64,000 nt of DNA from the NCBI GenBank assembly GCA_051313645.2, contig JBNRSN020000029.1, forward strand, positions 23,126,001-23,190,000, given 5' to 3'. The stretch's first letter is position 1. Every line of letters begins with the position of its first letter. A program made the translations under genes and the position numbers. The notes under the pieces were generated by a model that was given only the letters and a program-made list of their open reading frames with translations, had not been told where the DNA came from and ran no database searches. This document shows positions 24,356-64,000 of this stretch, piece by piece. The DNA is from Centroscyllium fabricii. Taxonomy: Eukaryota.

Positions 24356-24429
24356 TGCAGTTAAAGCAGCTAATGTCTATCTGCGTTTCTGGTTCTGTTT
24401 CACTCTTGTTTACCGCTGCAATGTCTTAC

Positions 24430-25469: not shown

Positions 25470-25850
25470 CATTGGTCAGATTACCTTTCTCAGCTACCCG
25501 CGTGGCTGCCTCATCTGGGCATGCATTGCCCTGTTGGTGTCGGTCAGTAAACTTCTTGTTTGCTTTAATTTATTATTGCGCACTGTTGGGGAAGGAGAGA
25601 GGCTCCTTCGAATTCCTCGGTTATATTCTCGTGTCTTATGGGTCCTCCTCCTGATGTCAGATATACTCGACTCCTCCAGGCTACCATGTAATCAGGCACC
25701 ACCCCAAAGGCATAACGACTATCTATATATGTTTACAGTTTTTCCTTTGGCTAGCCTCAAGGCTTCGGTGAGAGCCACCAAGTCTGCTACCTGAACCGAT
25801 AGGCTTCCTTCTGGCCGACCTTCCGTTTTAACCTGTCGGTTGCCATTGTA
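25470..25850 (-). pseudogene. ERV RNase H copy 1
   Basis: Manual translation gives [54 protein letters not shown]. Confidence 0.8.
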
Positions 25851-25879
25851 ATGATCCTTACTGTGCTAGGTATAGATGT

Positions 25880-26345
25880 GGAATGGCATATTCTGGTCTG
25901 GTAATCCCGGGGCAGGAGCATTTAAGAGGGATTGTTTAACTTTACAATAGCTGTTTCATGTTCGGGGCCCGAGTCCACCAGCTCCTGGAATGGTTTCCCC
26001 CATTTAATCAAATCCTGTAGGGGAATTTTCCTCGCAACTTTAGCCTTTTGTATTTACCACATCTTCCAGATCAAAATCTGACATAGCTGCTTGTAAGCAC
26101 GGGAGACTATAACAACTGTGAGAAATCAAAATACGGAGCCAGTGTTTGCATGCTGCTCCTGCTAGATGTCCTGTCTGTCCTAGAGCTCATCCCATGACCA
26201 CACGTCGCACTGATTCTGATTATTTATCCCTGGCTCTCAAGGTACTGTTCTTTATGTATTCAAGGTAGATTACTTCGTCCTTCCCTACCTGTACCTTTCT
26301 AAGGTTTACTTTTAGTCCCGCATTCTGTAGGGCTCCCATTACCAT
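25880..26345 (-). pseudogene. ERV reverse transcriptase C-terminal fragments
   Basis: ALQNAGLKVNLRKVQVGKDEVIYL and GPEHETAIVKL..APAPGLPD. Confidence 0.7.
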
Positions 26346-28108: not shown

Positions 28109-28123
28109 CCACTTCTGACACCA
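28109..28123 (-). other. ERV primer-binding site (tRNA-Leu type); duplicate at 28051-28065
   Basis: The minus strand reads TTACA-ACT-TGGTGTCAGAAGTGG, complementary to the vertebrate tRNA-Leu 3' end ..CCACTTCTGACACCA as I recall it. Confidence 0.75.
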
Positions 28124-28861
28124 AGTTGTAAGCGAGGACATTCTGGAAGCAAAACCAGAACTAACAGACTCAGGTGTTTCCCAGATCAATAGTTTATTTT
28201 TACGAGTGCACACAGGAGAACTATCTCAGCTACCCTTAGCTGGAGAAATCTTTCTCAAGGGAAAAAGTGGCAATATAGCTTAGTTTATGCACTTTATTAG
28301 ACAACACCCATTTATTACTAATATGGGTGTATACATGATAATATTGAAACATCATTGGTTTATATGATTAATCAAACACCTATTCGGCCTATCCTTTGAA
28401 CTTGAGTACCCTGTGGATATGTCACTAAGACGCTTATGGGCTGCAGAGGCTTCATTCTAACTTCTGTATTTCTGAGCTATCTCTTACTCTTGTTATCAGT
28501 ATGGGAAGATATTTTCAGCAGAGACATGGCTGGAAAACTACAAAGTCACAGTCAGTTATGTAGCCTGCTGACTACCGTTCAAGTCCGAACTTGCTGTTAT
28601 TCATTAATCGTGACTTTGTACTCTTATCTCTTGCAAGAACAGATTCTTTCTAAACAGTTACTCAGTGTAACCACAAGGAACACTCCAGAATGTCTTTGGT
28701 CAGATTCATTTATTTGTTTGCTTAAAAAGGGTTAACATTCCACGGTACTTTGCACTGGTTTCCAGCCTAAAAATACTGAATGGTACTTTTCAGACATATT
28801 ATACCGGCGAAATATTGAGGCCCAACCCTTTATATCCCCTAAACCAAATGTTGTCCTAACA

Positions 28862-29677
28862 TCCTCCCACATCTGTCACGCTCCCCCTCCCGCTCTGTCA
28901 CTCTCCCACTCCCCCCTCTGTCACTCTCCCCTACCCACTTCTGTAACTTTCGCCCTCCCCCCTTTGTTGCTCTACCCACCCTCCCTCTGTCGTTCTCCCC
29001 CTCCTCGCCTCTGTCACTCTGACGCTCCCCAACACTTTCGCTCTCCCCCTCCCCCATGTCACACACCCCCTGCCCCACTCTGCCGCTCACCCTCTCCCCC
29101 CTCTGTCACTCTCCCACTCCCCCCTCTGTTACTCTCCACTCCCCCCTCTGTTGCTCTCCCCCTCCCCACTTTGTTGCTGCCCCCTGTCGCTCTCCCCCTC
29201 CCCCTTCGGTCGCGCTCCCCTCCCAGCCTATGTCGCTCTCCCCCTCCACTCTGACGATCTCTACATCTCACATGTCGCTCTCCCCCACCACTCTCTGTCA
29301 CACTCACCCTCCCGCTCTGTCACTCTCCCCCCCTCCGGCGTTGTCCCCCTCCCACCTGCTATTGCTCGCTTCCTCCCTCGCTGTCACACTCCCCCCAGCC
29401 ACCGTCGCTCTCCCCCTCACTCCTGCCATGCTCTCCCCCTCCCAATCTGTCACGCTCCCCCCGACCCATGTTGTCTCTCTACACCCCCTACTCCAAGCCA
29501 CCGCCATCGCTCTGCTCCCTCTAAACCCTCTTCCCCATCTCTGCCCAGTCCCCCCTCTCCCAGTTCTCACCTCTCACCCTTCCTATCGATCAGCCCATCC
29601 CGTCGCTCGCCCCTCCCGTCGTTCCCCCCTCCCGTCGCTTGCCCCCTCCCATCGCTCTCCCCACTGTCATCGCTCCC
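28862..29677. repeat. CT-rich satellite, continuation
   Basis: Same CCCTCTGTCACTCTCC/CTGTCGCTCTCC core. Confidence 0.88.
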
Positions 29678-30990
29678 ATAAGAACATAAGAACATAAGAA
29701 ATAGGAGCAGGAGGCACTAATCGGCCCCTCGAGCCTGCTCCGCCATTCAACAAAGTTCATTGCTGATTTGAACCTAACCTCAATTTTACTTTTACTCTGC
29801 ATCCCGCCTGAACCCATGTGATGACGCGGGAGAGGCGAAAAAGCAGATGAAAAACCCAGTGGCCAATTTGGGAGACAAAATCTGGGAAATTCCTCTCTGA
29901 CCCATCTAGCTGATCGAAAACTGGTCCAGGAGATCACATGGCCGATCTGAACCGAGCCTCACGTCTACTTACCTGCCCGCTCACCATAACCCCTAATTCC
30001 CTTTACTTCCAGGAAACTGTCTATCTCAGTTTTAAATGTATTCAATGTAGTAGCTTCCACAGCTATCTGAGGCAGCAAATTCCACAGCCCCACCACCCTC
30101 TGAGTGAAGAAGGTTCTCCTCATCTCAGTTTTGAAATGGCAACCTCTTATTTTAAGATTATGACCCCTAATCCTAGTATCACCCACCATTGGAAACATCC
30201 TCATCGCATCCACCCGATCAAGCCCTCTCACAATCCTCTATGTTTCAATAAGATCATCTCTTATTCTTCTGAACTCCAATGAGTAGAGGCTCAATCTACT
30301 CAACCTCTCGTCATATGTCAGCCCCCTCATACCCGGAATTAATGCAGTGAACCTTCTTTGCACTGCCTCGAGAGCAAGTATGTCCTTTCTCAAATATGGA
30401 TACCAGAACTGCACGCAGTACTCCAGGCGTGGTCTCACCAATATCTTGTACAACTGCAGCAAGACCTCGCTGCTTTTATACTCCATCCCCTTAGCAATAA
30501 AAGCCAACATTCCATTGGCCTTCCTGACCACCTGCGGCACCTGCATACTAACTTTTTGTGTTTCCTGCACCAGGACCCCCAGATCGCGTTGCACTGAAGT
30601 ACTTTACAGTTCCTTTCCATTTAGATAATAACTCATTCTATTATTTTCCTTCCAAAGTGCATAACTTTACACTTTCCAGTATAATAATCTATCTGCCAAA
30701 TCTCTGCCCACTCACTTAGCCAATCTATATCCTTTTGCAGGTTTTTAATTTCCTCCTCACTCATCGCACTCCCTCCCATCTTTGGGTGATCCGCAAACAT
30801 TGATATGTTGCACTCGGTCCCCTCCTCCAAATCATTCATACAGATTGGAAAGAGTTGGGGTCCCAGCACCGACCCTTGCGGAACAGCACTAGTCACTGAC
30901 TGCCAGGCTGAGACCGAACCATTTATCCCAACTCTCTGTTTTCTGTTAGAAACCCAATCCTCCACCCATGCCAGAATATTACTCCCAATG
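29678..30990 (-). mobile_element. 5'-truncated CR1 LINE with complete 3' end
   Basis: ORFs 29965-31022 (VPQGSVLGPQLF, FADHPK, VRPRLEYCVQFW) and a (TTATGTTC)n tail at 29678-29700. Confidence 0.92.
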
Positions 30991-31129: not shown

Positions 31130-31608
31130 CTCCCATCGCTCTCACCAATACATCGCTCTAAACCCTCCCATCGCTCTCACCCTCCCATCGCTCTAAACCC
31201 TCCCATCGCACTCACCCTCTCATCGCTCTAAACCCTCCCATCGCTCTGAGCCCTCCCATCGTTCTAAACCCTCCCATCGCTCTCACCCTCCCATCGCTCT
31301 CACCCTCCCATCGCTCTAAACCCTCCCATCGCTCTAAACCCTCCCATCGTTCTAAACCCTCCCATCGCTCAAAACCCTCCCATCGCTCTCGCCCTCCCAT
31401 CGCTCTAAACCCTCCCATCGCTCTAAACCCTCCCATCGTTCTAAACCCTCCCATCGCTCTAAATCCTCCCATCGTTCTAAACCCTCCCATCGTTCTAAAC
31501 CCTCCCATCGCTCTAAACCCTCCCATCGCTCTAAACCCTCCCATCGTTCTAAACCCTCCCATCGTTCTAAACCCTCCCATCGTTCTAAACGCTCCCATCG
31601 CTCTCACC
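31130..31608. repeat. Homogeneous 18-bp minisatellite (CCCTCCCATCGCTCTAAA)n
   Basis: About 25 units. The minus strand translates spuriously as RAMGGF repeats. Confidence 0.93.
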
Positions 31609-32203
31609 TGTAACGGTTGTAGGTTGGGCCCAAATGCAATACACCGAAAACATACGTAGAAGTAAACTCCTTTATTTCTGAGCAGTCAAAGACATAGGAA
31701 ACAGTAGGTCAATAACGGCAGAAAGTCCACGGGAGCGACAAATCGAAAACAGAGTTCAAGCGGAAGAGAATCCAAATTCAGAAACAGTATAATACCGGGT
31801 AGTCCGTCCACGGGAGCGACAAATCAAAAACAGAGTTCAAGCAGAAGAGAATCCAAATTCAGAAACAGTATAATACCGGGTAGTCCGTCCAAGGGAGCGA
31901 CAAATCCAAAACAGAGTTCAAGCAGAAGAGAATCCAAAATTCCAGGAAGCAGGTCAGTATCTCGAACAGACAGGGTCAGAGAGCTAGGAACTAAACACAG
32001 GTATCACAGTCAGAAAGAATAAACGATCTGGCAACCTCTAGGTGGAAAGTAGGAGCTTATATACAGCTCTTGATTACTACTGGTTAATCTGGGCTGTTCA
32101 ATCAGGTGTAGGCAGTAGCTAACGAGGTGATAACCAGTTAAAGGGGAAGAGCCAACCTAGGAGTTAAAGGGGAATAGCCAACCTATGACAGAACCCCCCC
32201 CCC

Positions 32204-35200
32204 TCAAGGGACTGCTCCCGACGTCCCAAACCCCAAATGCCGGAGTCGGGTGGGCGGAGGGGGGCGGAGGAGGGACCAACATTCCTCAGGAGCCTCATCC
32301 ACGTCCATTTCATCACAAGAATGAAGGGAATTCTCCTCATCAGAGGATTGCACCTCCTCGTTCAGGGTTTCAAGAGAATGCACGGAACCGGGCCCTTGCC
32401 CAGATTCCCCAGGGGGCGCAGTCCTCCTACTCGGCTGGTCGGGATGCCTTCTGTGGAAGTCGGCCATAAGCTGAGGATCAACTTTGTGATGAGCAGGAAC
32501 CCAGGACCTCTTCTCTGGACCATACCCCTCCCAGTTCACCAGGTACTGAAGTCCTCTCCCTCGACGATGGGAGCGAAGTAGGCGATGAACAGTGTAGACC
32601 AACCCACCGTCGAGCATACGAGGAGGCGGAGGGGGCGTGGCAACAGGCACCAAAATACTCTCTTGTGCTGGTTTGACCAGTGACACATGAAAAGTGGGAT
32701 GAACCCGCATGGATCGACGAAGCTTGAGTCTCACTGCCGCTGGGTTGATGACCTTCTGGATCTCGAAGGGCCCGATAAATCTGGGAGCTAGCTTCTTAGA
32801 CTCCACCTGGATGGGCAGGTCCTTAGTGGAGAGCCACCCCCTCTGCCCAGCCTGATAGTTAGGAGCCTCCGAGCGACGACGGTTGGCAGCAGCCGAGTAG
32901 CGGTCCGCCGAGCGAAGCAACGAAGTCCGTGCCTGGTCCCATGTCTGGCGACAACGATGAATAAATGACTGGACGGACGGACAGGAAACCTCCCTCTCCA
33001 GGTCCGGAAACAATGGGGGCTGGAATCCATAGGCGCACTGGAACGGGGAGAGTCCGGTGGCGGAACTGGTCAGGGTGTTGTGAGCGTACTCTACCCACAG
33101 GAGTAGCTGGGACCAGGAAGAGGGATTCTGGGAGACCATACATCGGAGAGCCTTCTCCATCTCCTGATTTATACGTTCAGACTGCCCGTTGGACTGCGGG
33201 TGAAAACCCGACGACAGGCTGACTGTGGCCCTGATCAGACTGCAGAACTCCCTCCAGAATACTGAAGTAAACTGAGGACCCCGATCAGAGAATACGTCGA
33301 CAGGAAGACCATGAAGACGGAAAACATGTTGCAGCATAAGTTCAGCCGTCTCCTTCGCCGAGGGCAGTTTAGGCAGAGGTATGAAATGGGCCATCTTGCT
33401 GAATCGGTCCACCACTGTCAGGATAGTGGTTAGTCCCTTGGATGGGGGCAGACCGGTAACAAGGTCCAAGGATATGTGGGACCAAGGACGATGTGGTACC
33501 AGCAGAGGTTGCAGAAGACCAGCGGGAGCCCGATGAGACGGCTTGTGTTGATTGCAGACCGAGCAGGCGTTGACAAACACCCGGGTGTCTTCCTCCAGAG
33601 TATCCCACCAGAACCTCCGCAGTATAACCTCCTTGGTCCTTTGAGCCCCCGGATGGCAGGAAAGCTTGGAAGCATGGGCCCACTGGAGAACATCAGGTCG
33701 AAGGTTCTTGGGAATGAATAGACGGTCGCGAGGACAACCGCTGGGTCCAGACCGATCTTCCATGGCTGATCTCACCCTCTCCTCGATCTCCCACGTAACA
33801 GCAGCAATCAGACAAGGAGCTGGAAGAATGAGGTCAGATCCAGGAGCGGAACTCTCCTCCTTCTGGAACTGGCGGGACAGAGCATCAGGCTTGATGTTGC
33901 GAGAACCAGGCCGGTAGGAGAGTGTGAAGTTGAAACGGGTAAAGAAGAGGGACCACCTAGCCTGCCGTGAATTCAGCCTCTTGGCCGTTCGAATGTATTC
34001 AAGGTTTTTATGGTCTGTCCAGACTAGGAACGGCAGCTTGGTCCCCTCTAGCCAATGGCGCCACTCCTCCAATGCCATTTTGACCGCCAGTAACTCCCGG
34101 TTCCCGATGTCATAATTCATCTCAGCCGAGGACAGGCGTTTGGAAAAATAGGCACAGGGATGTAGCTTTTGGTCGGAAGCCGAATGTTGGGACAGAATAG
34201 CTCCTACTCCAACATCTGATGCGTCCACCTCTACCACGAACTGCTGATCCGGATCAGGCACCTGGAGGATGGGAGCAGAGGTGAACCGGGACCTGAGACC
34301 TCAAAAAGCCTCCTCCGCTGCAGAAGAGCACAGGAACAGCACGTTAGAGGAGGTAAGAGCCAATAACGGGGCCGCTACCATGCTGTCGCTGCGAATGAAC
34401 CGTCGATAAAAATTAGCGAATCCCAGAAACCGCTGTAGCTGTTTACGTGTCTCTGGAATAGGCCATGACGCGACAGCTGACACCTTCTCTGGATCCATCT
34501 GCACGCTCCCCTGCGCAATGATGTACCCCAAGAAAGATACGGTAGTGACGTGAAACTCACACTTCTCCGCCTTCACAAATAATGAGTTCTCGAGAAGCCG
34601 TTGCAGGACAGTCTGGACATGGTGAACATGCTCCTCACGAGACTTAGAAAAGATTAAAATGTCGTCCATGTACACGAACACAAACCGGTTCAGCATGTCT
34701 CTTAATACGTCATTAACCAAGGCTTGGAATACCGCCGGGGCGTTGGTTAACCCGAACGGCATTACGAGGTATTCATAATGTCCAGAGGGAGTGTTGAAAG
34801 CAGTCTTCCATTCATCGCCCTCTCGGATCTGGACCAGATGATAGGCGTTATGAAGGTCCAGCTTAGTAAAGATGGTCGCCCCCTGTAGCAACTCAAAAGC
34901 AGAAGGGATGAGAGGAAGAGGATACCGGTTCTTTATCGTGATGTCATTAAGACCCCTGTAGTCGATGCATGGTCGCAGCGACCCGTCCTTCTTACGCACA
35001 AAAAAGAATCCAGCCCCAGCAGGTCATGAAGAGGAACAGATGATCCCCGCCGCCATGGAGTCGCTGATGTACGTTTCCATGGCCTCCCTCTCAGGTGCAG
35101 ACAAGGAATACAGGCATCCCTTGGGTGGGGAAGACCCTGGCAGCAGATCAATGACGCAGTCATAGGGGCGATGTGGAGGCAGAGACGTGGCTCTAGCTTT

Positions 35201-35758
35201 GCTGAATACCTCCCTAAAATCGTGTTATTCAGTGGGAACCACTGAAAGATCTGAAACGGGATGAGGTGTTAATGGCTGTTGGAGGACGGTAGCCTGTTTC
35301 AGACAGACCTGGTGACAGGAGGAACTCCACCCCAAAATAGCTCCCGTGTTCCAGTCAATGTGGGGGTTGTGGCGGCGAAGCCAAGTGTGTCCCAGAATCA
35401 AAGGAAGCCGAGGTGATTTCAGGATATGAAACTGAATACTTTCATGATGATTACCAGACATAAGCATGTGAACCAGTGAGGTCTGATGTGTCACCGTTCC
35501 CAGGAGGTGACCGTCGAGGGCATTGGCAGGAACCGGCTGCGGCAGTGGAACCCGGTCAATCTCCAGCTGTGTGACAAGATCCTCATCAATAATGTTAACG
35601 TCGGCTCCAGAGTCAATAAAGGTGACGAGAGTCTGGGATCCCCTGGGAAGAAGAAGTCTGGCCTGGCACAAGGGTCGTGGATTGGGAGAGAGTCTTGTAG
35701 GAGTTCGACTCACCAGTACGACCCCATCTACTGGTGAGTCTGGCCTTTTGCTGGGCAT
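32204..35758 (-). pseudogene. Element A pol (PR-RT-RH-IN-chromodomain), fragmented
   Basis: FIDSGA, YMDD, EVDASD, HPG..CSVC, SDRGPQF and chromodomain [17 protein letters not shown]. Stops or frameshifts separate ORFs 35225-35758, 34301-34999 and 32204-34261. Confidence 0.93.
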
Positions 35759-36268
35759 TGGGAAACAAAATGGCCGGCCTGGCCGCAGTACAAACAGAGA
35801 TTCCCCTGGTGGCGTCGTTCATGCTCCACCAATGAGAGACTGGTGTGACCCAACTGCATTGGTCCGCGGCCCACTGGCTGTGACCCTGCTGTCGCAGTAG
35901 ACCTGGGCACCACGAATATCTCTTGAGACCATTTCGGAGGAGGTTGACCAGTCGTTCCCAGTCATCTCTCACGTCGACGCGCCTGGATACGGAGATCGAT
36001 CCTGGTGGCAAGACTAATTCGTTCATCCAGGGTGGAAGGGAGATCATAGGAGACCAGTTCATCCTTGATGTACTCTGCAAGCCCATGAAAAAAAAGTCAC
36101 ATAATGCAGCAGAGTTCCAATCACACTTACGAGCTCTGATTCGGAAGTCTATGGAATAGTCGGCCACTGTCTGATTACCCTGGCTCAGATTCCTGAGTCT
36201 CCGAGCTGCTTCAGAGTCGTAGGTCACCATGCTGAACACCTTTCTTAATTCGATGGCGAACCTCTGGA

Positions 36269-39200
36269 TGTAAGGGATCGGTTTAGGACCCAAACGCAGA
36301 AACACCGGAAGTCCGTAAACAGACACAAAATACCTTTATTCCCAGGACAAAATCTATATATATATATATATAACGATATGATAACCACAGTGTAATAAAC
36401 AATGAATGAATATAGTCAATCACAAAGAAAGCAATAGTCCAATGTCCCGAGAGCCGGTAAGCAGGAGCTCAACAATCCAAACCCTAAGTGTTGGTAGTTG
36501 AAAAGCAAGGCCCAAAATCTGGTGCAGAAGTACTTCCAGTCCCAACAGTCCAGGGAAGATGGCTCCTGTTGTGAACACAGCAAGTAATCCAACTTGACCG
36601 AAACAGGTAGTCCAAAAGCAAACTCGAATAGAAACTTAACAGTAATATATAACAAAATAACAGGATGAAGAAAACAATAGAACACTCTTACTCTCACAGC
36701 ACCAGAAACCAAAACGAACTGGCAATGAACAGGTGAAGACTGGAGGCTAATAACCCTCTCCAGCTAATTGTATAATAGGGGCTAACCAATCCAGAGAAGG
36801 ACATGATAATTGGAGTAACGACTCAATAAACTGAAAAGAACCCCTATGAACTTAAAGGGACAGTCCCAAAACCCTAAAGAAACCTCTATAAACTAAAAAG
36901 GACAGTCCACCCCATGACAGAACCCCCCCCCTCAAGGGGGCGACTCCTGACGTCCCAAAGCCTCAAATGCCGGATCAGGCGGGTAAAGAAGTGTGGAGGG
37001 GAACCAATAGTCCTCGAAACACTCCTCTATGTCCGTCTCGTAATCTGACTGAGAAGAATCCTCTTCGTCTGCAGATTCCCACTCATCATCAGGTTCCTCC
37101 TCCTTGGTCAGGCTCTCCTGTAACTGAATGGCTCCGATGACTTGCCTAGACCTCTCAAGAGTCGAAGTCTCCTTGTCTGGCTGATCGAGGTGGCTCGAAT
37201 GGGAGTCGCTAATGGGTTGCGTTTCCCCTATATCTTGAGTAGGACACGAAAACCTCTCCGCTGGGTCAAACTCCCTCTGCCCAACCTGTCTCTCTGGAGA
37301 CCCAGAACGACTATAGTTGGCAGCAGGCGGGTCTTGGTCCGTCGCGCGAAGGCCAGAAATCTGAGCCCGTCTCAGACAGCCCTGGTGACAGGAAAGGTTC
37401 CAGCCCAGAATATCTCCAGTGTTCCAATCAATGTGCGGGTTGTGGCGACGAAGCCAAGCGTGTCCAAGAATCAACGGAATCTGTGGTGATCGTAAAATGT
37501 GGAACTGGATACTCTCCTGATGGTCTCCAGACATCAGCATCAGCACAGGTGAGGTCTGGTGTGTCACCGTTCCCAAAATATGACCATCAAGGGCATGGAC
37601 AGGATACGACTGTGGTAGTGGCTCCTGGTCAATCCCCAGTTGCGTGACCAGATCCTCATCAATTATATTCATGTCCGCTCCAGAGTCAATACATATAATG
37701 ATGCTCTGGGATCCCCTGGGGAGAAGAAATCTTGCTTGACACAAGGGTCGTGGGTTGGAAGAGAAGCCATCAGGAGCTCGGCTCATCATAACGACTCCAT
37801 TGGTAGGTGAGTGCGGTCCCTTATACCTTGCTGGCCGAAACCCGGTGCGGCCCAACTGCATAGGCTCAGGACCCCCTGGCTCTACCCCTGCTGCAACCGT
37901 CTCTCTGGATGGCCCGAATCTTCCTTGGTTGCGACCCCATTGCATTGATTCGGGGGCCACTCGCTCAGGCCTAGCAGTCGCAGTCCCCCTGGGTGTCATG
38001 AATACCTCTGGAGTTTGACTAGGAGGATGTCGACCAGACCCTCCCAGACGTCTCTCACGTCGACGCGCCTGGATGCGAAGATCGATCCGGGTGGTCAGAT
38101 AAATGAGTTCATCTAGGGTGGGAGGAAGGTCGTAGGAGACTAGGTCATCCTTGATATACTCGGACAGGCCATGAATAAACACCTCCCTTAAAGCGGCCTG
38201 ATTCCACTCACTCCGACGAGCCCTGATACGAAAATCTATAGCGTAATTCGCCACCGTATCGTTTCCCTGGCTTAGACTCATGAGTCCCTGGGCTGCTTCA
38301 GAGTCGAATCTCACCCTGCCAAACACCCTTCTCAATTCAGTGGAGAACGCCTCGAAAGAAAAACAAGCCTGAGTATTTCTCTCCCACTCGGCGGTTCCCC
38401 AAAGCCGGGCTCTATCCGTGAGGTGATTAATTACGAAAGCTACTCTTGTCCTCTCATTGGCAAAGGTGTGGGGCTGTAATGAAAAAAGTATGGAGCAGCT
38501 GTTGAGAAAAGGCTCACACTGCTCGGGATCACCGGCATATCGCTCTGGTACCCCGACACGGGGTTCGAGTGCGGGAGCTATTAGTTGATGCATGGGTGCT
38601 AGCCCCCCCTCTGAATCCGTGTGTGGTGGAAGCGAGACCCCTGCCGACTCCGACACTTCTCGCTGGCTCCAGGCGGTAGTCAACCCCTCTATCTTGGAAA
38701 TAACTTCCCCCAAGGCCAGACCTTGGTGTGCCAGGGCCCCCTCCACATGTATCAGACGTTTCAGTGCCTCTGCTGGGTCCATGGTGGCCAGTTCGTTCTG
38801 TAAGGGATCGGTTTAGGACCCAAACGCAGAAACACCGGAAGTCCGTAAACAGACACAAAATACCTTTATTCCCAGGACAAAATCTATATATATATATATA
38901 TAACGATATGATAACCACAGTGTAATAAACAATGAATGAATATAGTCAATCACAAAGAAAGCAATAGTCCAATGTCCCGAGAGCCGGTAAGCAGGAGCTC
39001 AACAATCCAAACCCTAAGTGTTGGTAGTTGAAAAGCAAGGCCCAAAATCTGGTGCAGAAGTACTTCCAGTCCCAACAGTCCAGGGAAGATGGCTCCTGTT
39101 GTGAACACAGCAAGTAATCCAACTTGACCGAAACAGGTAGTCCAAAAGCAAACTCGAATAGAAACTTAACAGTAATATATAACAAAATAACAGGATGAAG

Positions 39201-39449
39201 AAAACAATAGAACACTCTTACTCTCACAGCACCAGAAACCAAAACGAACTGGCAATGAACAGGTGAAGACTGGAGGCTAATAACCCTCTCCAGCTAATTG
39301 TATAATAGGGGCTAACCAATCCAGAGAAGGACATGATAATTGGAGTAACGACTCAATAAACTGAAAAGAACCCCTATGAACTTAAAGGGACCGTCCCAAA
39401 ACCCTAAAGAAACCTCTATAAACTAAAAAGGACAGTCCACCCCATGACA
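36269..39449 (-). mobile_element. Young non-autonomous LTR element B (gag-protease only)
   Basis: The 651-bp LTRs 36269-36919 and 38799-39449 are nearly identical. TSD CTGGA sits at 36264-36268 and 39450-39454, and a PPT is present. Confidence 0.95.
36932..38782 (-). CDS. Intact 616-aa Gag-aspartic protease fusion (sushi-type Gag, no RT/IN)
   Basis: Capsid PERYAGDPEQCEPFL..LTDRARLW, protease [23 protein letters not shown], and an acidic tail. Uninterrupted from the PBS to the PPT. Confidence 0.88.
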   Translation of the reverse strand: MDPAEALKRLIHVEGALAHQGLALGEVISKIEGLTTAWSQREVSESAGVSLPPHTDSEGGLAPMHQLIAPALEPRVGVPERYAGDPEQCEPFLNSCSILFSLQPHTFANERTRVAFVINHLTDRARLWGTAEWERNTQACFSFEAFSTELRRVFGRVRFDSEAAQGLMSLSQGNDTVANYAIDFRIRARRSEWNQAALREVFIHGLSEYIKDDLVSYDLPPTLDELIYLTTRIDLRIQARRRERRLGGSGRHPPSQTPEVFMTPRGTATARPERVAPESMQWGRNQGRFGPSRETVAAGVEPGGPEPMQLGRTGFRPARYKGPHSPTNGVVMMSRAPDGFSSNPRPLCQARFLLPRGSQSIIICIDSGADMNIIDEDLVTQLGIDQEPLPQSYPVHALDGHILGTVTHQTSPVLMLMSGDHQESIQFHILRSPQIPLILGHAWLRRHNPHIDWNTGDILGWNLSCHQGCLRRAQISGLRATDQDPPAANYSRSGSPERQVGQREFDPAERFSCPTQDIGETQPISDSHSSHLDQPDKETSTLERSRQVIGAIQLQESLTKEEEPDDEWESADEEDSSQSDYETDIEECFEDYWFPSTLLYPPDPAFEALGRQESPP

Positions 39450-40433
39450 CTGGAAGGAAGAGCAAGCCAGAGTCTCTCTCTCCCTCTCGGCGGTTCCCCA
39501 GAGACGAGCTCTTCCTGTAAGGTGGTTAATAGCAAAGGCTACCTTTGCCGCCTCATTGGCAAAGGTGTGGGTCTGCAATGAAAAAAGAATGGAACAGTTA
39601 GTGAGGAAGGGATTGCATTGCTCAGGTTCACCGGCATAACGCTCCGGGACCCCGACCCGGGGTTCGGGTGTGATGCCTTGTGGGTGAGGCATGGTTGCCG
39701 ACACCGATGCTGGAGCAAGAACTGGTGGTGGTAGGGTCCCTGCCGATTCGAAGCTGCCTGTTGGATCCGGGCGGCGGTTAGCTGCTCCAATTGAGTGAAT
39801 AGCTTCTCCAAGGCCTGACCCTGGTGCCTTAGGGCGCACTCGACCTGTGTCAGACGATTCAGTGTGTCTGCTGGGTCCATTTCTGGCCAGATCGTTCTGT
39901 AACAGTTGTAGGTTGGGCCCAAATGCAATACACCGAAAGCATACGTAGAAGTAAACTCCTTTATTTCTGAGCAGTCAAAGACATGGGAAACAGTAGGTCA
40001 ATAACGACAGAAAGTTCACGGAGGCAACAAGTCCAAAACAGAGTTCAGGCAGGAGAGAATCCAAATTCAGAAACAGTAATATACCGGGTAGTCCGTCCAT
40101 GGGAGCGACAATCCAAAACAGAGTTCAAGCAGAAGAGAATCAAAATTTCCAGTAAGCAGGTCAGTATCACGAACAGACAGGATCAGAGAGCTAGGAACTA
40201 AACACAGGTATCACAGTCAGAAATAAATAACGATCTGGCAACCTCATGGTGAAAAGTAGGAGCTTATATACAGCTCTAGATTACGACTGGTTAATCTGGG
40301 CTGTCCAATCAGGTGCAGGCAGTAGCTAACGAGGTGCTGACCAGTTAAAGGGGAAGAGCCCACCTAGGAGTTAAAGGGTATATCCAACCTATGACGCTAT
40401 CCATGTAACTGTAAACCTTCAATCCTGGAGCAT

Positions 40434-43400
40434 GGGGAATCTCTGTTTGTACTGCGGCCAGGCCGGCCATTTTGTTTCCCAATGCCCAGCAAAATGCCGG
40501 ACTCACCAGTAGATGGAGTCGTACTGGTGAGTCAAACTCCTACAAGACTCTCTCCCAATCCACGACCCTTGTGCCAGGCCAGACTTCTTCTTCCCAGGGG
40601 ATCCCAGACTCTCGTCACCTTTATTGACTCTGGAGCCGACATTAACATTATTGATGAGGATCTTGTCACACAGCTGGAGATTGACCGGGTTCCACTGCCA
40701 CAGCCGGTTCCTGCCAACGCCCTCGACGGTCACCCCCTGGGAACGGTGACACATCAGACCACACCAGTTCACATGCTTATGTCTGGTAATCATCATGAAA
40801 GTATTCAATTTCATATCCTGAAATCACCTCGGCTTCCTTTGATTCTGGGACACACTTGGCTTCGCCGCCACAACCCCCACATTGACTGGAACACGGGAGC
40901 TATTTTGGGGTGGAGTTCCTCCTGTCACCAGGTCTGTCTGAAACAGGCTACCATTTTCCGACAACCATTAACACCTCTTCCCGCTTCAGATCTTTCGGTG
41001 GTTCCCACTGAATACCACGATTTTAGGGAGGTATTCAGCAAAGCTAGAGCCACGTCTCTGCCTCCACATCGCCCCTATGACTGCGTCATTGATCTGCTGC
41101 CAGGTTCTTCCCCACCCAATGGACGTCTGTATTCCTTGTCTGCACCTGAGAGGGAGGCCATGGAAACGTACATCAGCGACTCTATGGCGGCGGGGATCAT
41201 CCGTTCCTCTTCATCACCTGCTGGGGCTGGATTCTTTTTTGGACATTATGAATACCTCGTAATGCCGTTCGGGTTAACCAACGCCCCGGCGGTATTCCAA
41301 GCCTTGGTTAATGACGTATTAAGAGACATGCTGAACCGGTTTGTGTTCGTGTACACGGACGACATTTTAATCTTTTCTAAATCTCGTGAGGAGCATGTTC
41401 ACCATGTCCAGACTGTCCTGCAACGGCTTCTCGAGAACTCATTATTTGTGAAGGCGGAGAAGTGTGAGTTTCACGTCACTACCGTTTCTTTCTTGGGGTA
41501 CATCATTGCGCAGGGGAGCGTGCAGATGGATCCAGAGAAGGTGTCAGCTGTCATGTCATGGCCTATTCCAGAGACACGTAAACAGCTACAGCGGTTTCTG
41601 GGATTCGCTAATTTCTATCGACGGTTCATTTGCAGCTACAGCACGGTAGCGGCCCCGTTATCAGCTCTTACCTCCTCTAGGCTGCCGTTCCTGTGGTCTT
41701 CTGCAGCGGAGGATGCTTTTCGAGGTCTCAGGTCCCGGTTCACCTCTGCTCCCATTCTCCAGGTGCCTGAGCCGGATCAGCAGTTCGTGGTAGAGGTGGA
41801 CGCATCAGATGTTGGAGTAGGAGCTATTCTGTCCCAACATTCAGCTTCCGACCAAAAGCTACATCCCTGTGCCTATTTTTCCAAACGCCTGTCCTCGGCT
41901 GAGATGAATTATGACATCGGGAACCGGGAGTTACTGGCGGTCAAAATGGCACTGAAGGAATGGCTCCATTGGCTAGAGGGGACCAAGCTGCCGTTTCTAG
42001 TCTGGACAGACCATAAAAACCTTGAATACATTCGCACGGCCAAGAGGCTGAATTCACGGCAGGCTAGGTGGTCCCTCTTCATTACCCATTTCAACTTCAC
42101 CCTCTCCTACAGGCCTGGTTCGCGCAATGTCAAGCCTGATGCTCTGTCCCGCCAGTTCCAGAAGGAGGAGGTTTCCACTCCTGGATCTGACCTCATCCTT
42201 CCAGCTCCTTGTCTTCTTGCTGCTGTTACGTGGGAGATCGAGGAGAGGGTGAGATCAGCCGTGGAGGTTCAGGCTGGACCCAGCAGTTGTCCTCCCGACC
42301 GTTTATTCATTCCCACGAACCTTCGACCTGATGTTCTCCTGTGGGCCCATGCTTCCAAGCTTTCCTGCCATCCGGGGGCTCAAAGGACCAAGGAGGTTAT
42401 ACTGCGGAGGTTCTGGTGGGATACTCTGGAAGAAGACACCCGGGAGTTTGTCAACGTCTGCTCGGTCTGCAACCATCACAAGCCGTCTCATCGGGCTCCC
42501 GCTGGTCTTCTGCAACCTCTGCCGGTACCACATCGTCCTTGGTCCCACATATCCTTGGACTTTGTTACCGGTCTGCCTCCATCCAAGGGACTAACCACTA
42601 TCCTGACAGTGGTGGACCGATTCAGCAAGATGGCCCATTTCATACCTCTGCCTAAACTGCCCTCGGCAAAGGAGACGGCTGAACTTATGCTGCAACATGT
42701 TTTTCGGCTTCATGGTCTTCCTGTCGACGTAATCTCTGATTGGGGTCCTCAGTTTACGTCAGTATTCTGGAGGGAGTTCTGCAGTCTGATCGGGGCCACA
42801 GTCAGTCTGTCGTCGGGTTTTCATCCGCAGTCCAACGGGCAGTCAGAACGTTGGAATCAGGAGATGGAGAAGGCTCTCCGATGTATGGTCTCTCAGAATC
42901 CCTCTTCCTGGTCCCGGCTACTCCTGTGGGTAGAGTACGCTCACAACACCCTGACCAGTTCCGCCACCGGACTCTCCCTGTTCCAGTGCGCCGATTGATT
43001 CCAGCCACCATTGTTTCCGGACCTGGAGAGGGAGGTTTCCTGTCCGTCCATCCAGGCATTTATTCATCGTTGTCGCCGGACATGGGACCAGGCACGGACT
43101 TCGTTGCTTCGCTCGGCGGATCGCTACTCGGCTGCTGCCAACCGTCGTCGCTCGGAGGCTCCTAAATATCAGGCTGGGCAGAAGGTGTGGCTCTCCACTA
43201 AGGACCTGCCTCTCCAGGTGGAGTCTAAGAAGCTTGCTCCCCGGTTTATCGGGCCTTTCGAGATCCAGAAGATCATCAACCCAGCGGCAGTGAGACTCAA
43301 GCTTCCTCGATCCATGCGGGTTCATCCCACGTTTCATGTGTCACGAGTCAAACCAGCACGAGAGAGTACTTTGGTGCCTGTTGCCACGCCCCCTCTGCCT

Positions 43401-44150
43401 CCTCGTATGCTCGACGGTGGGTTGGTCTACACTGTTCGTCGCCTACTTCGCTCCCGTCGTCGAGGGAGAGGACTTCAGTACCTGGTGGACTGGGAGCGGT
43501 ATGGTCCAGAGGAGAGGTCCTGGGTTCCTGCTCGCCACATAGTTGATCCTCACCTTATGGCCGACTTCCACAAAAGACATCCCGACCAGCCGAGTAGGAG
43601 GACTGCGCCCCCTGGGGAGTCTGGGCAAGGGTCCGGTTCCGTGCATTCTCTGGAAGCCCTGCACGAGGAGGTACAATCCTCTGATGATGAGAATTCCCTT
43701 CATTCTTGTGATGAGATGGACGTGGATGAGTGTCCCGAGGAATGTTAGTACCTCCTCCGCACCCCTCCGCCCACCCGATTCCGGCATTTGGGGTTTGGGA
43801 CGTCGGGAGTCGTCCCTTGAAGGGGGGGGGGGGGTTGTCATAGGTTGGATATTCTAGCTCTCTGATCCTGCCTGTTCGTGATACTGACCTGCTTACTGGA
43901 AATTTGGATTCTCTTCTGCTTGAACTCTGTTTTGGATTGTCGCTCCCATGGACGGACTACCCGGTATATTACTGTTTCTGAATTTGGATTCTCTCCTGCC
44001 TGAACTCTGTTTTGGACTTGTTGCCTCCGTGAACTTTCTGTCGTTATTGACCTACTGTTTCCCATGTCTTTGACTGCTCAGAAATAAAGGAGTTTACTTC
44101 TACGTATGCTTTCGGTGTATTGCATTTGGGCCCAACCTACAACCGTTACA
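40434..44150 (+). mobile_element. Inverted 5'-truncated copy C of the element A family
   Basis: Runs from the gag knuckle to the 3' LTR (43836-44150, internally deleted). Highly similar to 32190-35810 in reverse. Confidence 0.93.
40482..43748 (+). pseudogene. Copy C pol (PR-deleted RT-RH-IN-chromodomain)
   Basis: ORFs of 838 aa and 245 aa. There is an in-frame RT deletion (AGFFF|GHYEYL), a YTDD motif and a break at ~42998. Confidence 0.92.
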
Positions 44151-45138: not shown

Positions 45139-45450
45139 CAGCAAACAACTCCTGTAAACCCTGACCAACTGAATCTGTATTTGGAATAGTTCACCAGTCC
45201 CCGCAACTGCTCCCACTCACCCTATGTATCTGTCTGTCCCACTATCCTTCCCCGGTGAATTCGGATGTTGCAGACAGAAACAGTGAAGTATCCAATGACT
45301 GATCCCCATCAGCCCGAGCCTTCCATGTTCTCACTGAATGAAATCATCCTTCACATTCACAGGAAGCAGGCTCTGTTTGATTGCTAAGGCCCTATAACCC
45401 CTGACTCTGTATTACTGCTGTCAGAATAATGGGCTGGTCTCAGAAATAAA
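45139..45450 (+). pseudogene. Defensin-like last exon plus 3'UTR, paralog 1 (pseudogene)
   Basis: Acceptor TTCAACAG, premature TGA at 45162-45164, terminal frame ..GEFGCCRQKQ* (stop 45284-45286). The 3'UTR is colinear with 63311-63480, with AATAAA at 45445-45450. Confidence 0.7.
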
Positions 45451-46409
45451 AATTACTGCATTGATTCAAAGGCCGCATGGATGAACTACAGAATTTGTTC
45501 ATCCCAGTTTGACATAAGAATAAAACAAAAAGAGTGACTCAATCGTGGCAGAGAAAGGAAATTAGGAATAGCATAAGATCCAAGGAGAGGGCAGATAAAT
45601 TGGCCAGAAAAGTGGTAGGCCTGAGGATTTGGAGCAGTTTAGGATTCAACAAAGGAGGACAAAGGGATTAATTAAAAAGAGGAATATAGAATATGATAGT
45701 AAGCTTGCAAGGATCATAATAACTGAGTATAAGAGCGTTTATCGATATGTGAAGAGAAAAAGATTAGTGAAATCAAGTGTAGATCCCTTGCACTCAGAAG
45801 CAGGGTAAGTTATAATGGAGGCCAAATAAATGGCAGACCACTTAAATGCATATTTTAGTACTGTCTTCACAAATTAGGATACAAATAACTTCCCAGAGAT
45901 GTTGGAGAACATAGGGTCTGATGAAATGGAGGAACTGAAAGAAATCAGTATTTATAGGGAAATGGTGTCACGGAAATTGACGGAATTGAAGGCCGATAAA
46001 TCCCCAGGGCCTGATAATCTACACCTAAGGGTATTATGGAAGTGGCCCAAGAAATAGTAGATGCGTTGCTGATCATCTTCCAACATTCGCTGGAAACTGG
46101 AACTGTACCCATGGATTGGAGGGTAACCAATGTTACCCCACTATTCAGGGTGGTAGAGAGAAAGCGGGTAATTACAGACTGATAAACCTGACATCGGTAG
46201 TGGGGAAATTGCTAGAGCCCATTATAAAAGATTTAATAGCTGAGCACTTGGAAAACTGTGACAGGATCGGACAAAGTCAACATTGATTTACAAAAGGTAA
46301 ATCGAGCTTGACTAATCTACTGTAATTTTTTGTGGATATAAATGGGAAAATAGATAAGGGAGAACCAGTAGATGTGTTGTTTTTGGACTTTCAGTAGGCT
46401 TTCGATAAC

Positions 46410-49085: not shown

Positions 49086-49961
49086 GGGCCATGTCTTCCT
49101 GTGGCCCGATTGCTGCGGGTGCGCGCCGACGTGCTCCTGCGGCGCACGCGCACGTAATTTTTTTTTTCTGTCACGTGAACTTCCTGTGCAAAAAGCCGGG
49201 TTTTTTTCGTGCGGAGGGGTCGTGTTTTTTTTGGTGCGGGGTGCAAGCCACGCGCACTGAGGTCGGCTTTCCCCCGCACAAAGCACAGAATCGGCCTGAG
49301 GATGAAGAAGATCGGGTAGGGAAACACCTTTTTTTTGGTTTTTTTCAGTTTCTAGGAAGCTGTTTTTTTTAAGTTTCTGCCTTTTTCTGCTGTTAGGGAT
49401 TTTTTTTGCTCCAGTGAAAAAGACACGTTTAAATTTAAAAAAAAATTGATTCCTTTGGAGATATTTGTCTGTGGTCTTTCAGCTTGTAAATGGGTAGGGT
49501 TTTATATCTTTTGGTGAAAGTGAAAAAAATCGGGATTTGAACGCGATGTCAGCCGAAAACAACAGTAATCAAATCCCGATTTTTTTTCACTTTCACCAAA
49601 AGATATAAAACCCTACCCATTTACAAGCTGAAAGACCACAGACAAATATCTCCAAAGGAATCAATTTTTTAAAAACTTTAAACGTGTTTTTTTCACTGCT
49701 CAAAGCTGCCTGCAGCCTCTTAAGACTGCTTTTTATATGTGCAGCAAAAGAGAGGCTTCCCCACGTGATACACCCGCATTTTGAGCAGCTGCCTACAGGA
49801 AGTCTGCAGCTCAAAGTCTTCCTGGGTAGGAAACGGAAGCCCCTTGCCCATCAACACAGGAAGTTCACGTTTCTGGTAATCACCCGCTGCACCCCCACGA
49901 GGCATTTCTGACCCCCCTTCGTGGGGGTGCAGCTCTTCTGGAGCACAGGAAAACAGGGCCC
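49086..49961. mobile_element. Second Harbinger-like MITE family with internal palindrome
   Basis: TIRs GGGCCATGTCTTCCTGTG/CACAGGAAAACAGGGCCC, with TSD ATT. Confidence 0.8.
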
Positions 49962-59628: not shown

Positions 59629-59780
59629 CAGCAAACAACTCCTGTAAACGCTCAGCAACTGAATCTCTATTTGGGATAGATCATCAGTCCCGGCGTCTGC
59701 CCCAATGCACCCTACGTATCTGTCTGTCCCACTATCCTTCCCTGGTGGGGTTTTGGTGTTGCAGACTGAACAGTGAATGA
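59629..59780 (+). pseudogene. Defensin-like last exon, paralog 2 (open frame, five Cys)
   Basis: Acceptor TTTAACAG. The phase-1 frame reads AANNSCKRSATESLFGIDHQSRRLPQCTLRICLSHYPSLVGFWCCRLNSE*. Downstream 59780-60110 is colinear with 63311-63650, but AATAAA is lost. Confidence 0.6.
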
Positions 59781-60239
59781 TCCAGTGAACGATTCCCACC
59801 AGCCAGAGATCGCCACGTTCTCACTGAATGAAACCTTCCTTCACAGGAAGCAGGCTCTGTTTGATTGTTTAGGCCCTGTAACCCCTGACCCTGTATTACT
59901 GCTGTCAGAATAATAGGCTGTACTCAGAATTATAACTTACTGCATTGATCACAGCTTCACTGCCGTGTCTTGTGTCTCTTAAGGATCAGTCTGGCGGAGG
60001 TGGTGGGGATTGAAATGTGTCTGGGAGAAGATTTGGGAATCGCAGCAAATGGGAAGAGGAAACTACTGCAGGGAATCTCTGCAAGAGTCTAATAACACAT
60101 TCTGAAAGGTACTGAGATAAGACAGGTGTCCCAGAGTATCAGGACTCTGACCGTTCGGTTTTCAAGATAACTCACTTGGACGGGTCTCTTCAGGCAGATT
60201 GGAAATAAACATCTATTGCATCAGAGATATGGAGATCGG

Positions 60240-61306
60240 GCTTTTAGCACGATTTTGTTATGGTCCCACATGGCAGACCGGCCAGAAAAGTAAAAGCTCA
60301 TGGGATCCAAAGGAAAAGTGGCAAATTGGATCCAAAATTGGCTCAGTGGCAAGAAGCAATGGATAATGATCGATGGATGTTTTTGTAACTGGAAGCCTGT
60401 TTCCAGTTGAGTTCCGCAGGACGCAGTACCGGGTCCTTTGCTTTTTGTGGTAATAATCAATGATTTAGATTTCAATGTAGGGGACATGATTAAGAAGTTT
60501 GCAGATGATGCAAAAATTGGCCGTGTGGTTGATGGTGAGGAAGAAATCTGTAGACTGCAGGAAGAGATCAATGGACTGGTCACATGAGCAGGAAAGTGGC
60601 AAATTGAATTCAATCTGGAGAAGTGTGATGTAATGCATTTGGGGAGGACTAACAAGACAAGAGAATATAAAATAAATGGTAGGATACTGAGAAATATAGA
60701 TGAGCAGAGGAATCTTCGAGAGCATGTCCACAGAGCCCTGAAGGTAGCAGGCCAGGCAGATGAGGTGGCTAAGAAGGCATACGGGATATTTTCCTTTGTT
60801 AGCCGAGGCATAGATTATAAGAGCAGGGAGGTTATGCTTAAACTTCATAAAACACTAGTTAGGCCACAGTTAGAGTGCTGTGTACAGTTCTGGTCACCAC
60901 ATTGCACGAAAGATGTGATCACACGAGAGCAGCTACAGAGGAGATTTACGAAGATGTTGCGAGGACTGGAGAATTTTAGCTATGAGGAAAGATTGGATAG
61001 GCTGGGGCTGTTTAGTTTGGAACAGAGGAGGCTGAGGGGAGATTAAATTAAGGTGTTTAAAATTATGACGAGCCGAGATAAAGCGGTTGGGAAGGTCCTA
61101 TTTCCCTGAGTAGAGAGGATAATAACCTAAAGTAAACGGTAGGATTGGAGGGGAGTTGAGAATATTTTTCACCCAGAGGGTGGTGGGGATCTGGAACTCA
61201 CTGCCTGAAAGTGTGGTAGAGGCAAAACCACTCATCACATTTAAAAAGTACTTCGATAATTACGTAAAGTGAAGTAACCTACAAGGCCTCGGAGCAAGAG
61301 CCGGAA
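60240..61306 (+). mobile_element. CR1 LINE 3' fragment
   Basis: FADDAK, MHLGRTN, VRPQLECCVQFWSP and LGLFSLEQRRLRGD. Confidence 0.9.
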
Positions 61307-61637
61307 TACCACGCCAGCCGAATCCCACTTTCCGGCTCTTGCTCCGACGCCTTGCAGGTTACGGCACTTTACGTAATTATCGAAGTACTTTTTAAATGTG
61401 ATGAGTGTTTTTGCCTCTATGTTTCTAATACTGAGAGGTTTTAATGGATTAAATGTTCTGTGTCTGTATCTGGTTCATCAGGCCAGCTGAGCTCATGAGT
61501 TAAGACCTGGAGTTGGGCCCAAACACAAAACCTTGTTTTCTGAAAGTTCGAGAACTGCCAAATGGGTCCAGCTGCCAACTGATCCATGTCTCACAGAACG
61601 GAAACACCTTTTCCCACGATATCATCAAGGAGCAGAG

Positions 61638-61664
61638 CCACGCCCCGTGTGCTTGCTTATAAAT
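61638..61664 (+). promoter_or_regulatory. Defensin core promoter: Sp/KLF box plus TATA box
   Basis: CCACGCCCC at 61638-61646 and TATAAAT at 61658-61664, about 80 nt before the ATG. Confidence 0.7.
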
Positions 61665-61741
61665 GCAGCAGATGCTGAGTCCGGATTCAGAACATTTCCA
61701 CTCCAGCCGCCTGATACTGATTCTGGAAAGTGGCGCAGAAG

Positions 61742-63310
61742 ATGATGATGAAAGCTCTGCTCTTGGTTCTTGCATTCCTGGTGCTGACTGAGTCCAGCCC
61801 TGCTGTGGGAAAGATTCGATATGGTAAATTTATCCGGTCTATCAGCAGCCAGTTTGCAAACAGTTTTATTTTTAAACTATTTTACTCTCTGTTTGAATGT
61901 CACGGTTTGATTGGTTGAGTAAAGATGATTTTGAAATTGTAAAAGTCTGAAGAATTTAATCTGAACCAGTTCCACGGGTAAATCCCCCGATTGTTCAGCG
62001 GGTGCCTCAGTGGGTCGAGGGAATGGTGGATGTTTGCTGATCCAAACAGAGCAGCAATAAAAACAAATTACTGGCCGAGTGGGCGGATCTCAGCCGGAGC
62101 ATGGACCCGGTTGGGAGAGTCTGTAATTGGCCTCAGTACCCAGGTGCAACGGAGGGGAAACTCCCAGTTGCTGCTCCCGATGACTGCTACCCGCTACAAA
62201 GTGAGAGAGTGCGGACTCAGTGTGAGGACAGGAGCGGGATCTCCTTCAGTCCCTTTCCCCCGCACTCACTGTCCAGTCTCACAGATGAAGAATGGTGAAT
62301 TGGGAGCGATAATGGAGGTCTGTGTTGAACTGGGCCCCAGACAATTATCAGCTTTTCATAACAGGAGGGCAGGGAATGGGATCAAAAGTGTTTCTAAACA
62401 GGTTTACTTTATTGGAATAATTCGGAAACCTTCATAGAGCTCGGAATGTGAGAACACAGACTAAGTAGAGGAGGCAAGCGGTGAAATGATCAATTGTCAG
62501 TAGCTGGGAGTCAGTATGAGTCAGTTGGGAGTTGAGTGAACAATTTGTGGGTTGATGCCCCAGTCCACTACATATAGGCCAGCACTGCGGGAGTGCTGCA
62601 CTGTTTGAGGTGTCATATTGTGGATGTTACTTTAAACGGAGACCCTGTCTCCCTGTTCATGGAGCAGGTAAAATCTGGTGGCATTATGTGAAAAGCTGGG
62701 AGTTCTCCCGGTGTCTTGGGCTGACATCGCTCTCTCAGCCAACATGATCAGAGACTTCCCATCCTGTACAATCACAGTTGCTGTTTGTGGAACTTTGCTG
62801 TGAGCAAATTTGCTGCTGTGTTTCCTACAAAACAGTGTCGGCACTTCAGAAACAATCCATGCTCTGTGTTGTTTTTGGCCCTTCTTGTGCTGGTAAAATT
62901 TCTATGTCAATGTCAGATCTTTCCGCTCTGTATCTCTAGGCTCAGATTGCGGGTGTGGTGGACTCCATTCTGAGGAACGTCCCTTGTGCTGTCCTTCAGG
63001 ACAAAGAGTGAGTCTGTGCAGGTCGGGGGAGGGGGAGCAGTGGGCTTTCATGAAGTATAAAAGAGTGATGGTTCATGTGTGGTCCAGAGTCAGTCGCAGT
63101 AACACTGACTGGCTCGGCTTCATGTATTCTCATTGTTCTCCCTCCCTGTGTGTACAGAACCATCAATCAATTCATTCTTCATTTTGGACTTTAGAGTTGT
63201 GCCATTGGCGTGTTGGAATATGTCGTGAGTCCGGCTGTAGGACAGGCGAGGTGTTTGCCCAAGAAAGAATCTGCAGACTTGGATACGAATGTTGCCTTCC
63301 GAAACAGTGA
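61742..63310 (+). CDS. Beta-defensin-like secreted peptide, 2 exons (61742-61823, 63195-63310), 65 aa
   Basis: The spliced product is MMMKALLLVLAFLVLTESSPAVGKIRYELCHWRVGICRESGCRTGEVFAQERICRLGYECCLPKQ. The intron is phase-1 GT(61824)..AG(63194). The Cys pattern is C-x6-C-x4-C-x11-C-x5-CC, with a GxC motif. Confidence 0.9.
62545..62850 (+). mobile_element. Deu-domain SINE (SacSINE1/AmnSINE-like) in the defensin intron
   Basis: GGGAGTGCTGCACTGT..GAGGTG..; GAGTTCTCCCGGTGTC.TGG; TTGCTGTTTGTGG.A.TTTGCTGTG..CAAATT.GCTGCTGTGTTTCCTACA. Confidence 0.65.
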
Positions 63311-63463
63311 AAGATCCAGTGATGGATTCCCACCAGCCCGAGCTCTCCGCGTTCTCACTGAATGAAACCTTCCTTCACAGGAAGCAGGCTCTGTTTGGTT
63401 ATTTAGGTCCCGTTTCCCCCTGAACCTGTATTACTGCTGTCAGAGTAATGGGCTGCACTCAAA

Positions 63464-63469
63464 AATAAA
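63464..63469 (+). terminator. Polyadenylation signal of the defensin gene
   Basis: AATAAA about 155 nt after the stop, followed by GT/T-rich sequence. It is conserved in paralog 1. Confidence 0.7.
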
Positions 63470-64000
63470 AGTTACCGCATTGATCATAGTTTCACCTCCG
63501 TGTCTTGTTTCTCTTCTGGATCAGACTGTCCAAGGACACGGTGTCTGGGGGTGGGGTGAGGCTGAGAGAAGAGGTGGGAATGCAGGAAATGGGAATAGGA
63601 AGCCACTGCATGGAATCTGCAAGTGCCTAATAACACATTCAGAAAGGTACAATCTTTAAATATTGCTCATGAAAGTGCTACCTTGATGCTTTTGAAAACC
63701 TCACTGAGAAATAATTAGGTGACTCGGAAAATGATTTAATCCACAAATTGCGCCCAGGTCAGCCATCAAATTGGGCTTGTTCATTGTCAACATGAGAAAA
63801 GCCAAGACGCCGATAGAGTTCCTGGATTTACACTTGAGAATGGCCTCAGGCAATGCTCCATTATTATGCACATTTCATCCCGAGTGCTATTTATTACTGG
63901 GGCTTGCCAATGACATTAATCTCTACAACCCTCTTATTCTCTCTCAATCTCTCACTTTCTCTCTATCTGTCTGTCTCTCTCTGCCCCCATTCTCTACGTA

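Follow-up and report, generated by a model that had tools for sequence, protein, structure and literature searches.

The window analysed here, a 64-kb stretch of DNA, carries on its forward strand a small two-exon gene whose promoter, both splice sites, six cysteine codons, stop codon and AATAAA are intact, in order and in frame. A GC box (61638..61645), an Sp1-type site in reverse orientation whose function is suggested by its consensus, stands 19 nt before a TATA box (61657..61663); both this box and an initiator-like hexamer (61686..61691) were read directly from the sequence, and the hexamer is presumably an initiator, judged by the consensus BBCABW. Transcription is predicted to start at the A at 61689, 31 nt after TATA, a position that would exclude two upstream ATGs, at 61663 and 61672, from the mRNA. 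Coding exon 1 (61742..61823) begins with the ATG at 61742 and contributes 82 coding nt, that is, 27 codons plus 1 nt, and the intron is therefore in phase 1. The peptide encoded by this exon has a basic n-region, a hydrophobic core at residues 5-15 and then a few mature residues, and a simple listing by the -3/-1 rule gives candidate signal-peptidase sites after residue 18, 21 or 23.

The donor of exon 1 (G/GTAAAT, cut after 61823) opens a GT-AG intron of 1371 nt (61824..63194) with a modelled acceptor, TTTAG, ending at 63194; branch-like motifs lie 16-24 nt upstream of this acceptor, with no AG between the motifs and the site. A competing acceptor AG at 63156-63157 (exon start 63158) lies 37 nt upstream of the modelled one and has 16 pyrimidines in 20 positions versus 15 in 20 at the modelled acceptor; its use would yield an out-of-frame product of 50 aa that is not a defensin. 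Coding exon 2 (63195..63310) contains all six cysteines and ends with the stop TGA at 63308-63310; it makes up the last part of a longer ATG-started frame, 86 aa in length, whose start lies in the intron. The 3' UTR (63311..63469) ends in AATAAA at 63464-63469, with the six cysteines, the stop and the UTR contiguous in one exon, and the segment 61420-63279 has no repeat copy anywhere in the window. A preliminary description of this DNA had assembled the same elements, from GC box, TATA box and signal exon through the phase-1 intron and six-cysteine exon to the stop and AATAAA, into a 65-aa peptide; each element lies where it had been placed, and the frame assembles as proposed.

The spliced frame gives a 65-aa precursor with cysteines at 30, 37, 42, 54, 60 and 61, a pattern of C-x6-C-x4-C-x11-C-x5-CC (spacers 6, 4, 11, 5 and 0), and the intron falls two codons ahead of the first cysteine (C1). 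The cleavage candidates predict a mature peptide of 42-47 aa with only 6-11 residues between the cleavage site and C1; with eight Lys and Arg, five Asp and Glu, a net charge of about +3 and a computed pI of 8.7, it is mildly cationic, as had been suggested. Across its six frames the window has a single instance of the strict cysteine motif, and 60 order-3 Markov windows have none; a broader beta-defensin pattern likewise has a single instance in the window, and 250 order-4 simulated windows together produced one. A scan of both strands for candidate first exons required an ATG, a hydrophobic core and a donor in phase 1. Six sites passed, in 13 rows; exon 1 of the gene scored highest and belongs to the two of these six sites that have an upstream TATA.

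Published family features used throughout are taken from the accessible portions of PMC6795676, PMC8231796, PMC3978493, PMC7203481, PMC10707392, PMC12278569, PMC3636224, PMC8116387 and PMC11541337. The hallmarks of fish beta-defensins given in the available text of the triggerfish paper are Gly-hydrophobic-C2, Arg or Lys after C2, Glu at C3+4 and GxxG before C4. The peptide has residues G35-I36-C37-R38 and E46, whereas residues 50-53 are Q, E, R and I, and GxxG before C4 is hence absent; PRRY is absent as well. The joint chance of Gly-hydrophobic-C2, Arg after C2 and Glu at C3+4 (four positions) is about 1e-4 from the codon make-up of the window, a value to be read with the qualification that the features were picked from the paper and that one further feature failed.

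Family assignment was also sought by direct searches. In the ESM Atlas the best cluster was Defensin_beta (PF00711) with a score of 0.81, which we treat as a lead only; all ten of the ten best named matches belonged to the Defensin_beta family or clan, and the unnamed clusters searched gave no match. Neither of the two exons nor the in-frame stretch matched any Pfam family at E<=10, and a genuine fish defensin, according to the part of its report available, likewise gave just an insignificant Pfam match. Twelve PDB sequence matches (E<=10), none of them a defensin, were rejected as chance; they comprised a designed filament and B30.2/butyrophilin domains aligned to a short W-x-V-G-x-C-R stretch. 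Two phmmer matches among 1.84 billion representatives were likewise rejected, both being unrelated tandem-repeat proteins. A word-index search of 5.8-billion clusters found nothing for exon 2 (35-114 aa) or exon 1 (31-102 aa), and the shark coverage or the reach of this index seems thin, since it offered merely four candidates for the leader of a shark zinc-finger gene in the same window. Exact look-up found none of three peptide pieces, which is weak evidence because the pieces are not whole proteins. Two single-sequence AlphaFold models were of low confidence (pLDDT 74 and 60, pTM 0.42 and 0.36), the second including four non-native intron-encoded residues; four fold searches with them (Foldseek, VIA) gave no significant match, the best rows having E 9.4 and Z 2.3, and we consider these blanks uninformative because the models were single-sequence and of low confidence. 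The direct searches gave no name; the family case rests on features taken from papers. The beta-defensin identity put forward in the preliminary description is nevertheless supported by the spacing, the fish hallmarks and the Atlas lead, and the gene is apparently unannotated in the protein collection searched.

Two partial copies of the 3' end of the gene are present on the same strand. Copy B (59757..60112), an orphan duplicate, comprises the last codons, the 3' UTR and the downstream flank; it matches the intact gene at 82% over 351 nt (E 6e-95; matching segment 59769-60112), and its poly(A) hexamer is altered. Copy C (45256..45465), also an orphan, comprises the last ~9 codons and the 3' UTR with AATAAA, matches at 80% over 211 nt (E 3e-48), keeps the CC and the KQ-stop end, and is interrupted downstream by a repeat. 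Similarity to the intact gene sets in only about nine codons ahead of the stop, near 63280; it reaches 84-87% in the UTR, with the flank represented in B only. B and C have about 700 nt further in common, 75% alike. Upstream of about 63280, the DNA scores of B and C were reached by 1609 and 978 of 2000 shuffles, respectively, and the scores of a frameshift-aware protein alignment by 18 and 101 of 300; these scores are no better than those of shuffles and thus give no support to full homology of B and C with exon 2. That they are third exons of teleost-type genes was rejected, as no AG directly precedes the CC codons. A search for an exon with C1-C4 upstream of B or C gave GT-repeat artefacts only, and no six-cysteine frame, first exon or promoter copy was found for either in the window. 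Both copies are open for 37 codons in the frame of the gene with Trp at position 4, and copy C has Cys at the positions of C1, C5 and C6. From their sequences, B and C are best read as members of a tandem cluster, either partial duplicates or paralogues that decayed long ago, and the common 3' end may have been donated by the intact gene or gained by it through unequal exchange. Since both neighbouring copies have decayed, the cluster does lose members. A separate observation at copy B is a 49-codon open frame after a possible acceptor (59631-59780), with five cysteines (x20, x4, x11, CC) and an end near the defensin-like stop; it has no Pfam match, no first exon was found for it, and its counterpart in copy C is broken.

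The window around these copies consists mostly of LTR-retroelement and LINE-like pieces together with broken zinc-finger genes, and 60% of its length recurs elsewhere in the window, mostly as mobile-element pieces. Two broken C2H2 zinc-finger genes, about 70% alike, lie in opposite orientation at 10555-11570 (+) and 12983-13850 (-). The leader at 10583-10729 gave two matches among the four candidates, both UniRef proteins of the sawshark Pristiophorus japonicus at 70% identity (one carries the annotation of a histone H2A-like fusion), and these matches support a cartilaginous-fish origin, in line with the earlier impression of a shark-like genome. On the reverse strand, an LTR retroelement at 2743-7244 has 274-nt terminal repeats 97% identical and a protease-RT-RNaseH frame at 4282-6132, and a retrovirus-like remnant at 19531-28852, broken up by other repeats, lies between 83%-identical 700-nt direct repeats (19531-20247 and 28142-28852) and includes an integrase zinc-binding piece at 24005-24373. 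Each of these direct repeats adjoins one of two long C/T-rich minisatellite arrays with a 22-23-nt unit (16500-19535 and 28863-29680). A nest of Gypsy-like LTR retroelements at 31600-44150 contains an inverted pair (32172-34784 versus 43854-41240) that is 95-99% alike, a 651-nt direct repeat 99.8% identical (36269-36919 and 38799-39449) and an 867-codon pol frame at 40395-42998, and by eye part of 49420-49700 seems to be repeated inverted around 49510-49590. At 61217-61419, at the tail of a LINE-like fragment and about 240 nt upstream of the TATA of the defensin gene, there is a near-perfect fold-back inverted repeat whose arms, 94% identical, are about 90 nt long; folded as DNA it scores -93.7 kcal/mol, with a z of -22.7. 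Each arm carries TTACGTAA, a C/EBP-like palindrome; the repeat could be a source of hairpin RNA or a part of the promoter, and neither it nor the window as a whole has an Rfam match.

Taken together, these features indicate that the locus is probably a real, functional beta-defensin gene of a shark, a new member of a well-known family, a reading to which we give a probability of roughly 0.8. The gene's anatomy, the rarity of its motif, the family hallmarks, the paralogous fragments and the shark-like host are observed, whereas transcription, the choice of splice sites, the cleavage site, fold, disulfides and activity are inferred. Under this reading, the GC-box/TATA promoter would drive a transcript of two exons, removal of its phase-1 intron would yield the 65-aa precursor, and signal peptidase would take off about 18-23 residues. 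The secreted peptide of 42-47 aa, about 5 kDa and net +3, is predicted to fold on the disulfides C1-C5, C2-C4 and C3-C6 and could attract leukocytes and act on microbial membranes with moderate potency at the surfaces of skin, gill, gut or reproductive tract. Teleost beta-defensins that match it in size and charge make such an antimicrobial and chemotactic role in barrier tissue the most likely one. Of the small tandem cluster seen in the window, this gene would be the sole intact member, the other two copies being 3' ends only.

An alternative interpretation, possible although rather unlikely, is that the peptide has the beta-defensin fold and a main job other than microbe killing, in the reproductive tract (sperm coat, egg case or oviducal gland), in receptor signalling or in gland secretion. 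The low charge with five acidic residues is consistent with such a role, as is the loss of the GxxG hairpin motif, which the available parts of the literature link to membrane interaction; the same sources describe fish beta-defensins as moderately active and some as testis- or pituitary-specific, and they describe a reuse of the fold in snake crotamine. However, teleost peptides of equal charge and size have shown antibacterial and chemotactic activity, and the spacing is unlike the eight-cysteine motif of lizard ovodefensins.

It is improbable that the locus is a recently silenced copy with its frame still open, or a mis-spliced one in which the upstream acceptor leads to the 50-aa non-defensin product. 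The decay of both paralogous copies, the extent of mobile-element duplication in the window, the strong pyrimidine tract at the upstream AG and the absence of the peptide from the protein collections searched would fit this interpretation, but promoter, splice sites, cysteines, stop and AATAAA are all intact, the segment 61420-63279 is free of repeat copies in the window, and the modelled acceptor has branch-like motifs of its own with no AG before the site. As for the missing protein record, small genes are commonly missed by annotation. Convergence or chance, by which an unrelated six-cysteine secreted peptide would have come to show beta-defensin spacing, is very unlikely. Although the family was not confirmed by any search with profiles, sequence or fold, and the intron lies two codons before C1 rather than 10-12 as in sea bass genes, the blank fold searches came from low-confidence single-sequence models and the Atlas features point to Defensin_beta. 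The peptide also conforms to beta-defensins in spacing, four secondary hallmarks, intron phase, size and charge.

The preliminary description regarded cartilaginous-fish defensins as poorly described, and the literature searched, largely open-access, agrees. A 2019 review, in the part available, counts transferrin, squalamine and kenojeinin among the antimicrobials of sharks and skates but mentions no defensin for these fishes; no description of a shark, elasmobranch or chondrichthyan defensin appeared among the literature matches listed, mostly from non-subscription journals; and in the accessible text of a shark skin-mucus proteome paper the word defensin appears solely in a carp reference. 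The shark gene leaves the general picture of beta-defensins unchanged. It can serve as a query for the family in shark and ray genomes, whose members similarity searches from bony vertebrates would miss, and the peptide suits tests at the high salt and urea levels that prevail in the body fluids of sharks.

Comparison with known systems places the peptide close to teleost group 1 (sea bass BD1 and cod Defb) in form. These precursors are likewise 65-66 aa long and share C1-x6-C2, a C3-C4 spacer of 11, a C4-C5 spacer of 5, G-X-C2, Glu at C3+4, a net charge of +1 to +3 and a phase-1 first intron (sea bass exon 1 is 55 nt); the available texts place the cysteines of BD1 and Defb at 31, 38, 42, 54, 60 and 61, so that C3-C6 coincide at 42/54/60/61. 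Precursor length, mature length, pI and charge of the shark peptide agree with the values given for fish beta-defensins in the excerpted sources (60-77 aa, 38-45 aa, near 8 and +1 to +5, respectively). The preliminary description had seen in the 11-residue third spacer and the low charge possible marks of a lineage-specific subtype. These grounds fail, because an 11-residue spacer and a modest charge are the teleost norm: BD1 and Defb have the same 11, lizard spacers range over 8-14, and the charges of BD1 and Defb are +1.8 and +1 in the passages available. The earlier comparison used the mammalian x9 pattern only.

The real departures from teleosts are the two exons, the intron two codons before C1 and the absence of GxxG before C4. 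Teleost group-1 and group-2 genes, as far as the accessible text describes them, have three coding exons, with C5-C6 in exon 3 and the split between C4 and C5, whereas the shark gene has two; the sea bass intron, from exon sizes, lies 10-12 codons before C1. The shark peptide lacks both the teleost hallmark GxxG and the PRRY of group 2, its C2-C3 spacer is 4 versus 3 in BD1, its intron is 1.37 kb versus about 0.1 kb, and the searches run found no sequence similarity to teleost group 1. The sea bass paper, in its available part, hypothesizes a two-exon ancestral vertebrate gene with an intron gained in fish and birds. The two-exon shark gene agrees with this hypothesis, a single gene being compatible with intron loss as well, and it offers an outgroup test of an idea that is published but, for sharks, untried. 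We tentatively propose, at less than even odds, that the gene is the first member of a chondrichthyan beta-defensin subfamily so far undescribed, and that this subfamily keeps the form the gene had in the ancestor of jawed vertebrates: two exons, an 11-residue C3-C4 loop and a phase-1 intron that, as in invertebrate big defensins, directly borders the cysteine domain. Its cluster would then evolve by birth and death, with 3' ends exchanged or duplicated independently of a peptide exon that changes fast. If true, this would provide outgroup evidence that the second intron of teleosts was a later gain and that the shorter mammalian loop is derived.

With mammalian beta-defensins the gene shares two exons, six cysteines that are all in exon 2, a long intron and a prepeptide without a long pro-piece. 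The third spacer of mammalian beta-defensins is about 9, versus 11 in the shark, the shark peptide lacks the Gly two residues before C4, and the best-known cationic mammalian members carry a higher charge. The spacing also fits the lizard beta-defensin consensus given in the accessible source, C-X6-7-C-X3-5-C-X8-14-C-X5-7-CC, and tandem clusters are a further likeness, as is the two-exon structure of some lizard genes, whereas the second conserved Gly of lizard peptides is absent and lizard ovodefensins have an eight-cysteine motif in place of the six cysteines found here. Beta- and big defensins, in the portions of the literature available, have in common a phase-1 intron ahead of the cysteine domain, and the shark gene resembles the C-terminal domain of invertebrate big defensins in having such an intron at the 5' end of its cysteine-rich region, while differing from them in having neither an N-terminal hydrophobic domain nor a pro-region.
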